Source: Chlamydiales bacterium
Lineage (GTDB): Bacteria; Chlamydiota; Chlamydiia; Chlamydiales; JAAKFR01
Reading direction: 5' to 3'
DNA: 64,000 nt
Assembly: GCA_024233495.1 (NCBI GenBank)
Contig: JACKPM010000002.1
Location: 224,541-288,540, forward strand
Shown: in pieces, positions 53,675 to 55,307 of the stretch
How the letters are laid out: each line of letters begins with the position of its first letter
How positions within the stretch are numbered: the first letter of the stretch is position 1
Program-made: the position numbers and the translations under genes
Notes under the pieces: model-generated
Database searches by the model: none
Told to the model about the DNA's origin: nothing
The model's input: the letters and a program-made list of their open reading frames with translations, nothing else

Positions 53675-53836
53675 TATAGTCAAATCGGATGAAAATTTTA
53701 CAAATTCATACCATTTGGTTTCACCAAAGATCGTGCTTGATCTCATAGACCATAAATGGTCTAAGTCGAACTTTGCGCTTACTTTGGCTTTGCCATCTGC
53801 CATGAATTTGTAAAATTTTCATCCGATTTGACTATA
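53675..53836 (-). mobile_element. 162-bp MITE/ERIC-like element, family A (A3, inverted relative to A2)
   Basis: The perfectly complementary termini are TATAGTCAAATCGGATGAAAATTTTACAAATTCAT and ATGAATTTGTAAAATTTTCATCCGATTTGACTATA. The central palindrome is TAGACCATAAATGGTCTA. Confidence 0.85.
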
Positions 53837-53958
53837 ACTGAGTAATTCCTTCTTCTGCTGCCTCAATCGCTGACATGATCATGTTAGGATCTTCAAGCAA
53901 TATATTAATAATTTTAAGCGTTTGAGGTCTATGTAAATATCTGATAAACTAGGATGCT

Positions 53959-55002
53959 ATGAAAAAAGTCGTTGTCGGAATGTCTGGAGGTGTTGATTCC
54001 TCAGTTGTTGCTTATCTTCTTAAGAAGCAAGGATATGATGTGATTGGGCTTTTTATGAAGAATTGGGAGGATGAGGGATGTACCTCAGCCTCTGATTATG
54101 AAGATGTAGCCGCCGTTGCGGGGCAGCTGGAGATTCCGTTCTACACTGTCAACTTTGCAAAGGAGTACTGGGACCGTGTCTTTTCAAGGTGTCTCGAAGA
54201 GTATGAGGCAGGCTATACACCCAACCCTGATATTTGGTGTAATCAAGAGATCAAGTTTAAGTTGTTTTTCGAAAAGGCATTAGCTCTTGGCGCTGACTAT
54301 TTGGCAACCGGGCACTATTGCCGCACTGATGGAAAACGTCTCTTGCGTGGTGTTGATGAGAATAAGGATCAGAGCTACTTTCTTTACACTCTGAAGAATA
54401 GCGCTTTAGATCGTGTTCTATTCCCTTTAGGGGGGATGGAGAAGAGCGAAGTGCGCAAGATTGCTGAAGAAGCTGGGCTCGCAACAGCTGCAAAGCGAGA
54501 TAGTACAGGGATTTGTTTTATCGGGAAGCGCAACTTTAAGGAGTTTTTGGCGCGCTATCTCCCCAAAAAAGCAGGCGTGTTTGAGACGCGGTGTGGAAAG
54601 GTTGTTGGTGAGCATGAGGGAGCACACTACTACACAATAGGACAAAGAAGGGGATTGGCAATTGGAGGGGCTGGTGAAGCGTGGTATGTGGTGGATAAAG
54701 AGATGGAGCGCAATGTTGTTATTGTGGAGCAGGGAGATCACAATCCCGAGCTCTTTTCTTCCTCGTTGAGCGCAACAGATGTGAGTTGGGTGGGTGGTAT
54801 GCCTACTTTTCCTTTCAAGTGTACAGCAAAAATTCGGTACCGCTCTCCTGATGAGAGATGTGAGATTGTGTGTGAAGAAAATGGAAAGCTCATCGTACAC
54901 TTTGAGAGCAAACAAAAAGCGATTACCCCTCGGCAGTCAGTTGTCTTCTATGATGGAGAGATCTGTTTAGGGGGTGCAATCATTGAGAAAACTTTGAGTT
55001 AA
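53959..55002 (+). CDS. mnmA: tRNA 2-thiouridine(34) synthase
   Basis: The PP-loop is [25 protein letters not shown] and DQSYFLY motifs are also present. Confidence 0.93.
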
Positions 55003-55145
55003 GTATGCATTATGTTGAATAAGTCAATCTCTGGGGCATTGTCGAACCTTCCAAGCATTTAATCGGGGCAAAATCAGCCAAAAAGCCCTCAAAACTCGAC
55101 TTATTCAACAATGCCCTCGGACTTTGGAAACACAGCCAAGTATGT

Positions 55146-55307
55146 TATAGTCAAATAGGTTGAAAATTTTACAAATTCATACCATTTGGCTTCACCAAAG
55201 ATTGCGCTCGTTCTCATAGACCATAAATGGTCTAAGTCGAACTCCGCGCTTACTTTGGCTTTGCCATCTGGTACGAATTTGTAAAATTTTCAACCTATTT
55301 GACTATA
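55146..55307 (-). mobile_element. 162-bp MITE/ERIC-like element, family A (A4)
   Basis: It is roughly nine-tenths identical to A3 by eye. The termini are TATAGTCAAATAGGTTGAAAATTTTACAAATTC and GAATTTGTAAAATTTTCAACCTATTTGACTATA, again perfectly complementary to each other. Confidence 0.85.

Follow-up and report, generated by a model that had tools for sequence, protein, structure and literature searches.

The stretch of DNA considered here, 64,000 nt of contig JACKPM010000002.1 (assembly GCA_024233495.1) from an uncultured member of the Chlamydiales and referred to below as the window, carries a set of short palindromic repeats. They constitute a real, non-random and newly described superfamily of the type termed miniature inverted-repeat transposable elements (MITEs), with the unusual trait that a conserved core is combined with arms which are fixed in length and co-vary freely. 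We consider it likely that they are non-autonomous, MITE-like mobile elements moving by the mechanism proposed below, and the best reading of them is as a superfamily of the Correia/ERIC type, its families new and its general kind well known. Seven elements (A1 to A4, B, a truncated B2 and D) and two fragments lie in the 64 kb, a density of about one element per 9 kb; a preliminary description, made from the letters of the window alone, had counted at least seven copies in families A, B and D, and that count stands. Lengths are 162-165 nt with almost no indels, each unit being an imperfect palindrome from end to end with termini TATAG...CTATA, arms of ~48 nt that differ by family yet are self-complementary, and a core of ~65 nt, in which there are a small hairpin and internal loops that are fixed.

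Family A

Four copies of family A had been recognized in the preliminary description, the last two inverted relative to the first two, with terminal inverted repeats starting TATAGTC and a central palindrome (here TAGACCAT..ATGGTCTA). All of this is upheld, and the copies are:

A1: 13585..13742, + strand, degenerate family A copy with its TATA ends gone, indels and in-frame stops.
A2: 33141..33302, + strand, family A element, complete at 162 nt and decaying, with three mismatches in its terminal stem.
A3: 53675..53836, − strand, family A element, complete at 162 nt, whose 35-bp terminal stem is perfect; covariance model score 179 bits.
A4: 55146..55307, − strand, complete 162-nt family A element, the best-paired copy, with a perfect 33-bp terminal stem; 181 bits.

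How well paired are they? The contention that each copy keeps its arms perfectly matched is true of A3 and A4 and not of the rest of the set, A2 having its three mismatches and, in the central palindrome, one wobble, A1 being degenerate and B2 truncated. In A4, 56 of the 81 mirrored positions are Watson-Crick pairs and 3 more are wobbles. A long hairpin, of the sort known from ERIC elements and MITEs, had been envisaged for the whole unit, and near-complete hairpins are indeed predicted, with folding z-scores of −8 to −18; for A3 the predicted RNA folding energy is −76.5/−79.5 kcal/mol and for A4 −85.8 kcal/mol (z −13 to −18), the RNA fold of A2 reaches only −56.8 kcal/mol, and A4 folded as DNA gives −54 kcal/mol. 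With up to 3 mismatches allowed, a 28-nt end motif has 7 occurrences in the window, where 0 are expected. On comparing the window with itself, similarity between copies ends within ~5 nt of the element borders and the flanks are unrelated; because it stops there the copies are not segmental duplicates, an origin that the preliminary description had set against independent insertion and that is now rejected.

All family A copies are intergenic. A1 is in a non-coding stretch of ~1 kb, A2 is flanked by the convergent genes ptsI and ybaB, A3 lies 33 nt past the stop codon of the HTH-EIIA gene and 123 nt ahead of the mnmA start, and A4 lies 144 nt past the mnmA stop codon (MnmA is MCP5469477.1; the G+C content of the window is 47.6%). 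Directly after A4 comes a separate 26-bp inverted repeat (55315-55375) with a terminator-like hairpin at 55329-55361 and then TTTG. A2 recurs, identical, in a read-archive contig (L004), and a further A copy is present on a second contig of the same metagenome-assembled genome (MAG), where the open reading frame (ORF) P0126 (MCP5470178.1) begins inside it.

Related families with a common core

The other elements and fragments of the window, together with two elements from outside it, are:

B: 14191..14352, − strand, family B element in which the core is related and the end (TATAGCGGTTTGA...) related too, though diverged; 137 bits.
Half A-like element: 14334..14407, + strand, left half; its 28-nt end agrees with the A consensus at 27/28 positions, E 3.7e-5.
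B2: 11013..11125, − strand, truncated family B element, core plus one arm.
Family B end fragment: 39134..39170, + strand, solitary.
D: 41045..41207, − strand, 163-nt family D element filling the mrp/pgm junction; 143 bits.
Fourth family: L011, 957-1118, 162 nt; the arms (TATACCAATTTCGAG...) differ, the core (GCGCGGAGTTCGAC - hairpin - ATGAGAACGAGCGC) is the same as in A and B, and the fold is the same, at −95.5 kcal/mol.
Fifth family (E): L015, 5208-5372, 165 nt; TATAGT...ACTATA ends like those of A and D, a full-length hairpin of −102 kcal/mol and an unrelated core.

The right end of B runs into an A-type end, that of the half element at 14334..14407, which abuts or overlaps it and is a nested or truncated insertion. 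The neighbours of B2 are an MBL-fold gene on one side and a XerC/D-like recombinase gene (10054-11052) on the other. The terminal bases of D (41203-41208; CTA) give mrp its stop codon and part of its last Leu codon, and the other end of D is 10 nt from the pgm start codon. L011 is a read-archive contig from another sample (run SRR18502801) with the same G+C as the window (47.4%), and its element is 7 nt upstream of the tsaD start codon. L015 is the locus of a relative (GCA_046153495.1, JBJXGG010000109.1) with the element upstream of sodA; it surfaced as an arms-only match of covariance model R1, which was built from eight element sequences and which, in a scan of the window plus ~90 kb of relatives' DNA, brought up no new copies beyond that match.

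The kinship of A with B and D, asserted earlier, is seen in the central core that all three share (nhmmer profile search and self-comparison), and terminal stems of ~30-38 bp are found in D, L011 and L015, as against 33-36 bp in A3 and A4. The A, B, D and L011 families make up one core-sharing superfamily, to which L015 adds the same ends and length on another core.

Conservation of structure and covariation

A covariance model, as suggested in the preliminary description, has been built, and pair statistics cover the four core-sharing families (A, B, D and L011). RNAalifold places 58 pairs on the eight-sequence alignment, 40 of them with at least one compensatory double change. Paired cells amount to 91%, compared with 74.5% in 500 shuffles, none of which reaches the observed pairing, and they fall to 33-42% when partners are slid by 1-3 columns; pairs changed on both sides number 40, compared with 16.8 in the shuffles and 3-14 with partners slid by 1-3 columns. 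Covariation is present beyond the ends: the inner helices have it and so does the central hairpin with its central palindrome, which is GACCAT/ATGGTC in families A and B, GACTTA/TAAGTC in D and GACCGC/GCGGTC in L011.

Comparison of the families with one another gives an identity of 38-58% for the arms and 56-77% for the core. Within the core, unpaired positions are about as conserved as paired ones, and internal loops and bulges keep their position, and often their sequence, from family to family. There is no strand or orientation bias pointing to a specific structured RNA, because orientation relative to transcription is mixed (four copies one way, three the other, one ambiguous) and G:U and A:C events are balanced on the reference strand.

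Compensated change and decay in family A

A position-by-position count gives 14 differing positions between A3 and A4, not the ~16 first reported, and the two covarying pairs that had been noticed between them are exactly 12/151, C:G in A3 and A:T in A4, and 15/148, A:T in A3 and T:A in A4, both compensated. In the terminal stem these two pairs are changed on both sides and still Watson-Crick, one pair has become a wobble and none is broken. Over 400,000 trials with 14 substitutions placed at random on A3, outcomes with two or more compensated pairs and no broken terminal pair had a frequency of 5e-5, the test being a post hoc one. The end-motif count, the folding z-scores and this simulation exclude chance.

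The private changes of A3 and A4 preserve or improve pairing; for the private single changes of A4 this holds of all but one, and a clustered GG-to-AC change at its positions 36-37 is the exact complement of the opposite arm. The private changes of A2 are of another character, 6 breaking a pair, 2 producing a wobble and 1 being neutral, and because they mostly break pairs, a copy once inserted has no protection: what is constrained is the propagating lineage, not each insert. The lineage-specific compensated changes in the otherwise perfect arms of A3 and A4 suggest that an element needs matched arms in order to propagate. As for the earlier proposal that the pattern reflects selection or gene conversion instead of neutral decay, the 40 compensated pairs among 58 bear it out; selection for pairing and templated arm-to-arm correction are not separable, and the present data fit either.

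Genomic setting and evidence for insertion

Gene content and order in the window match those of four other Chlamydiales assemblies, the shared order being pgm, mrp, rnc, radA, hemCD, a small-paralogue cluster, sodA, accD, dut, EIIA, HTH-EIIA, mnmA, clp and lipB. In ~75 kb of syntenic DNA from the four relatives no element was found, except the family E copy in L015. The gap between mrp and pgm is 168 nt in the window, with the 163-nt D inside it; in L016 the two genes overlap, and the Mrp C-terminus is ~12 residues shorter in the window than there. The mnmA-clp spacer measures 700 nt in the window versus 88 nt, 17 nt or an overlap in relatives. Upstream of sodA the spacer is 249 nt with the element in L015, and 74-77 nt, alignable and empty in the window (49419-49492) and in L008; this filled/empty site is compatible with a TA target, the comparison being one between species at ~70% protein identity, with sequences too diverged for proof.

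There is no direct repeat outside the TATA ends, and the TA within them could be a duplication, palindromic and merging with the ends. The presence/absence differences at orthologous sites are between species only, and three read-archive samples of the same strain, looked at for strain-level empty sites, all carry A2 and A3. Read-archive contigs of the same organism stop inside elements, as would be expected for a genome-wide repeat. Between HTH-EIIA and mnmA, where the window has no more than a 316-nt spacer with A3 in it (53643-53958), each of the four relatives has a gene of 336-401 aa, and the window has thus lost a gene here.

Searches for known signals and for coding

A known RNA family was rejected, there being no Rfam match at the gathering threshold and only plant MITE-derived miRNA hairpins far below it. 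A site for IHF was likewise rejected, neither WATCAANNNNTTR nor WATCARNNNNTTR being found in any element on either strand, and so was consistent promoter or terminator function, with promoter-like and terminator-like sites at chance level in the scans and no T-run after the hairpins. Coding was rejected on the lack of codon-position bias, the absence of a start codon from A4 and the interruption of the frame in A1 and B. One core reading frame is open or nearly so in A, B, B2, D and L011, and its translations were used as a profile handle against 1.84 billion proteins. The profile search returned two useful ORFs, P0126 of the same MAG and P0127 of L011, plus a WD40 false positive (P0125); the A3 peptide alone as a protein query had no match, and a protein search with the final alignment returned P0127 only.

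Proposed mechanism and alternatives to it

Small size (about 70-300 bp) with terminal inverted repeats, no coding capacity, dispersed copies with unrelated flanks and presence/absence at orthologous sites, the last between species, are among the features by which MITEs are known, and all of these are seen here. A MITE life cycle is proposed because the anatomy, the distribution of copies, the evidence for insertion and the mix of perfect and decaying copies fit it. The elements would probably depend on a transposase that acts in trans from a gene at another place in the genome, and they would insert at AT-rich positions between genes or at gene ends, the probable target being a TA dinucleotide. 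Propagation would continue only in lineages with matched arms, constant length and an intact core. Most likely pairing is kept because the fold or the matched ends are needed for mobility, a need that would stem from an enzyme acting on two matching ends or on a putative folded intermediate, whether single strand or cruciform. New inserts, A3 and A4 being candidates, would arrive with perfect arms bearing the compensated changes of their lineage, and old ones (A2, A1 and B2) would subsequently decay. Co-transcription with neighbours would give RNA hairpins of about −57 to −86 kcal/mol, which could be cut by host RNase III or could alter expression of the neighbours, as a side effect and not as the cause of persistence.

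Several points weigh against a MITE life cycle of this kind. The core is better conserved than the ends, which is unusual for a transposase-driven MITE, and an enzyme that binds each double-stranded end separately would need no covariation of the ends. The evidence base is ~10 elements, with small counts in each family. The sole filled/empty comparison is the interspecific one at ~70% protein identity, and a target-site duplication is unproven, since a palindromic TA merges with the element ends. No cognate transposase was seen among the 50 larger ORFs scanned in the window, in agreement with the preliminary description; neither a HUH nor a RAYT gene turned up in the window, and no IS630-like gene or matching full-length insertion sequence (IS) was found. 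Scans of genome and metagenome collections with exact core and end patterns gave no further copies, these patterns being narrow and that of the core so tied to the A/B central palindrome that L011-type relatives would be missed: genome contigs yielded no copies, metagenome contigs a single chance match inside a gene (L003), and viral contigs and plasmids nothing.

Might the matched changes be a mutational by-product with no function? Replication template switching within the quasi-palindrome, amounting to arm-to-arm conversion, is an established mechanism by which inverted repeats become homogenised in their arms and compensated pairs can arise at a single step (PMC7202029, PMC8604942, PMC8794818). 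The GG-to-AC change of A4, complementing the opposite arm exactly, has the look of such an event, and it is in favour of the mechanism that all but one of A4's private single changes keep or improve pairing. It is harder to see why the three terminal-stem mismatches of A2 should then have stayed uncorrected and A1 be decaying, or why loops and bulges are conserved across families when unchecked homogenisation should erase them; the constant 162-165-nt length and the conserved core are left unexplained. Template switching may contribute here, for instance to the GG-to-AC change, and as the whole account we hold it to be rather unlikely.

The unusual pattern of core and arms keeps a structure-reading mode of mobilisation under consideration. 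In its boldest form, an unlikely one to our minds, the elements would be moved as folded single strands by a shape-reading enzyme that docks on the core hairpin and fixed bulges and cuts at the TATA stem base. Such an enzyme would explain the conserved core and the 162-165-nt length, the free drift of the arms, only in complementary fashion, and the coexistence of several arm families within one genome. If it were so, a new class of structure-specified mobile DNA would be at hand in Chlamydiales, its logic like that of attC sites or REPINs, its architecture other than theirs.

Alternatively, the host could use the elements as structured RNA signals (RNase III sites, mRNA stabilisers or terminators), with pairing under purifying selection on the host. 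Such action is known of Correia and ERIC elements. The copies here, all of them intergenic and at gene ends or between co-directional genes, are probably transcribed, their predicted RNA hairpins are very stable, and RNase III is encoded in the window at 42743-43459. What makes such a role quite improbable as the reason for pairing is that the copies show no preferred orientation relative to transcription, that neither strand is favoured by the similar numbers of G:U and A:C, that A1, A2 and B2 are degenerating and elements are missing from the same sites in relatives, and that the hairpins are not followed by a T-run and the terminator and promoter scans are at chance.

The elements could also be folded single-strand recombination sites for a structure-reading enzyme (attC-like with a tyrosine recombinase, or REPIN-like with an HUH/RAYT enzyme) and not MITEs of a DDE transposase. 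Structure, length and unpaired bases are conserved while arm sequence is free, REPIN hairpins too show common compensatory changes (PMC3116915), and a tyrosine recombinase gene adjoins B2. That recombinase looks like an ordinary XerC/D, however, and the window showed no HUH gene; a cassette array is missing, the copies standing in both orientations among syntenic housekeeping genes; GTTRRRY/RYYYAAC boxes and a GTAG head are absent; and the TATA ends resemble those of a TA-target cut-and-paste element. We regard these sites as very improbable.

Finally, a coding constraint on the core, exerted through a protein of ~43 aa (..AKFD.DH.WSMR.S.I..), is scarcely credible: the same frame is open or nearly so in A, B, B2, D and L011 and the profile of its translations recovered two more element-derived ORFs, but variability by codon position is 7.0, 10.4 and 10.9 with no third-position excess, A4 has no start codon, A1 and B have in-frame stops and B2 a stop just upstream, there is no ribosome-binding site, the only homologues are ORFs called across other copies, and the palindrome leaves the opposite strand equally open.

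Other repeats in the window

A 45-nt sequence occurs twice, inverted and 96% complementary, just past the ends of pgm and sodA (39232-39276 and 50119-50163), and may represent either a further family of short repeats or a terminator in common. Another 45-nt intergenic repeat, AATCGRGGCAAAATCAGCCAAAAAGYCCTCAAAAC, is at 55061-55105 and 63032-63076 (copies 89% identical) and, more weakly, at 50186-50230; the read-archive contig L002 ends inside a repeat of this type, which suggests more copies in the genome. At 25197-27547 and 47301-49418 there are two clusters, each with five small paralogous genes in tandem (~135-170 aa) for which the Pfam families tested gave no match; junction repeats within the clusters are at 25210, 25677, 48156 and 48578, and similar clusters are present in L008 (4158-5487) and L015 (2567-5196).

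Repetition of a different order is found at 12256-12980, where an irregular 12/25-nt tandem repeat (CCAGGTATGCCT...) of ~700 nt is probably a Pro/Gly/Met-rich repetitive region of a protein, and at 46393-46623, where six to seven tandem 33-nt repeats (11-aa units) lie inside a 445-aa ORF (45910-47247) with no Pfam match. A 74-nt stretch at 23817-23890 is self-complementary to 78% (its inner 32 nt to 94%); it overlaps the start of a DUF4143 ATPase gene (which ends at 23840) and extends into the spacer before a divergent DUF818 gene (from 23922).

Significance

Descriptions of small palindromic mobile repeats from Chlamydiae are very scarce, and full-text literature searches brought up no account of such elements in this phylum. 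At about one per 9 kb, they interrupt assemblies made from short reads, change the ends of genes and divide operons, D being an example in that it gives mrp its stop codon and separates two genes whose counterparts overlap in a relative. Beyond this the superfamily offers a clean natural case in which covariation of a hairpin derives either from selection on a folded transposition substrate or from templated mutation.

Comparison with known systems

The nearest analogues are the Correia and ERIC elements. Correia elements (NEMIS/CREE) of Neisseria are, like those here, non-coding intergenic repeats of ~100-160 bp with terminal inverted repeats beginning TATAGT. They have TA at the insertion point, their co-transcribed RNA hairpins are cut by RNase III, and a transposase is not known for them. 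The present elements are in another host phylum, have no IHF consensus and no outward promoter above chance, and differ further in that their centre is better conserved than their ends and several arm families share one core. The Correia inverted repeat starts 5'-TATAGTGGATTAA... with TATAGT (PMC5039591), and of its 26 bp, TATAGTGGATTAA(C/A)..., only these first 6 nt are common to the two.

ERIC/IRU and YPAL of enterobacteria are whole-length imperfect palindromes of ~127 bp, intergenic, transcribed into hairpins and classed as MITEs (PMC3733652). The likeness is in the whole-length imperfect palindrome and the intergenic location; there is no kinship in sequence, the ends of ERIC are conserved from one species to another whereas the arms here diverge freely and co-vary, and the host here belongs to an obligate intracellular lineage. 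The Rickettsia palindromic elements (RPE) are palindromic repeats, 100-150 bp long, that have spread within a bacterium of obligate intracellular life (PMC3733652); they are often in-frame inside genes, unlike the intergenic elements described here (of which D supplies the end of mrp), and the sequences are unalike. RUP and other TA-targeting MITEs of the IS630/Tc1-mariner type are likewise small with terminal inverted repeats, and the ends here are compatible with a duplicated TA, the difference being that the duplication is unproven and no IS630-like gene or matching full-length IS accompanies it.

Membership of the Correia, REPIN or attC groups fails on defining features. With integron attC sites the discrepancy is in the TATAGTC/GACTATA ends, the two orientations, the syntenic housekeeping genes and the missing RYYYAAC/GTTRRRY boxes. 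REPINs, which are hairpin-forming miniature mobile DNA with compensatory changes as here, are shorter, have a GTAG (or CGTC) head and a single-copy RAYT gene, and combine conserved ends with a variable spacer, the reverse of the present arrangement of TATAG ends on 162-nt units in a window with no HUH/RAYT gene. In them compensatory hairpin changes are common and have been taken as evidence that the folded unit replicates (PMC3116915); among mobile DNA, REPINs are the best precedent for a hairpin that evolves by compensatory change.

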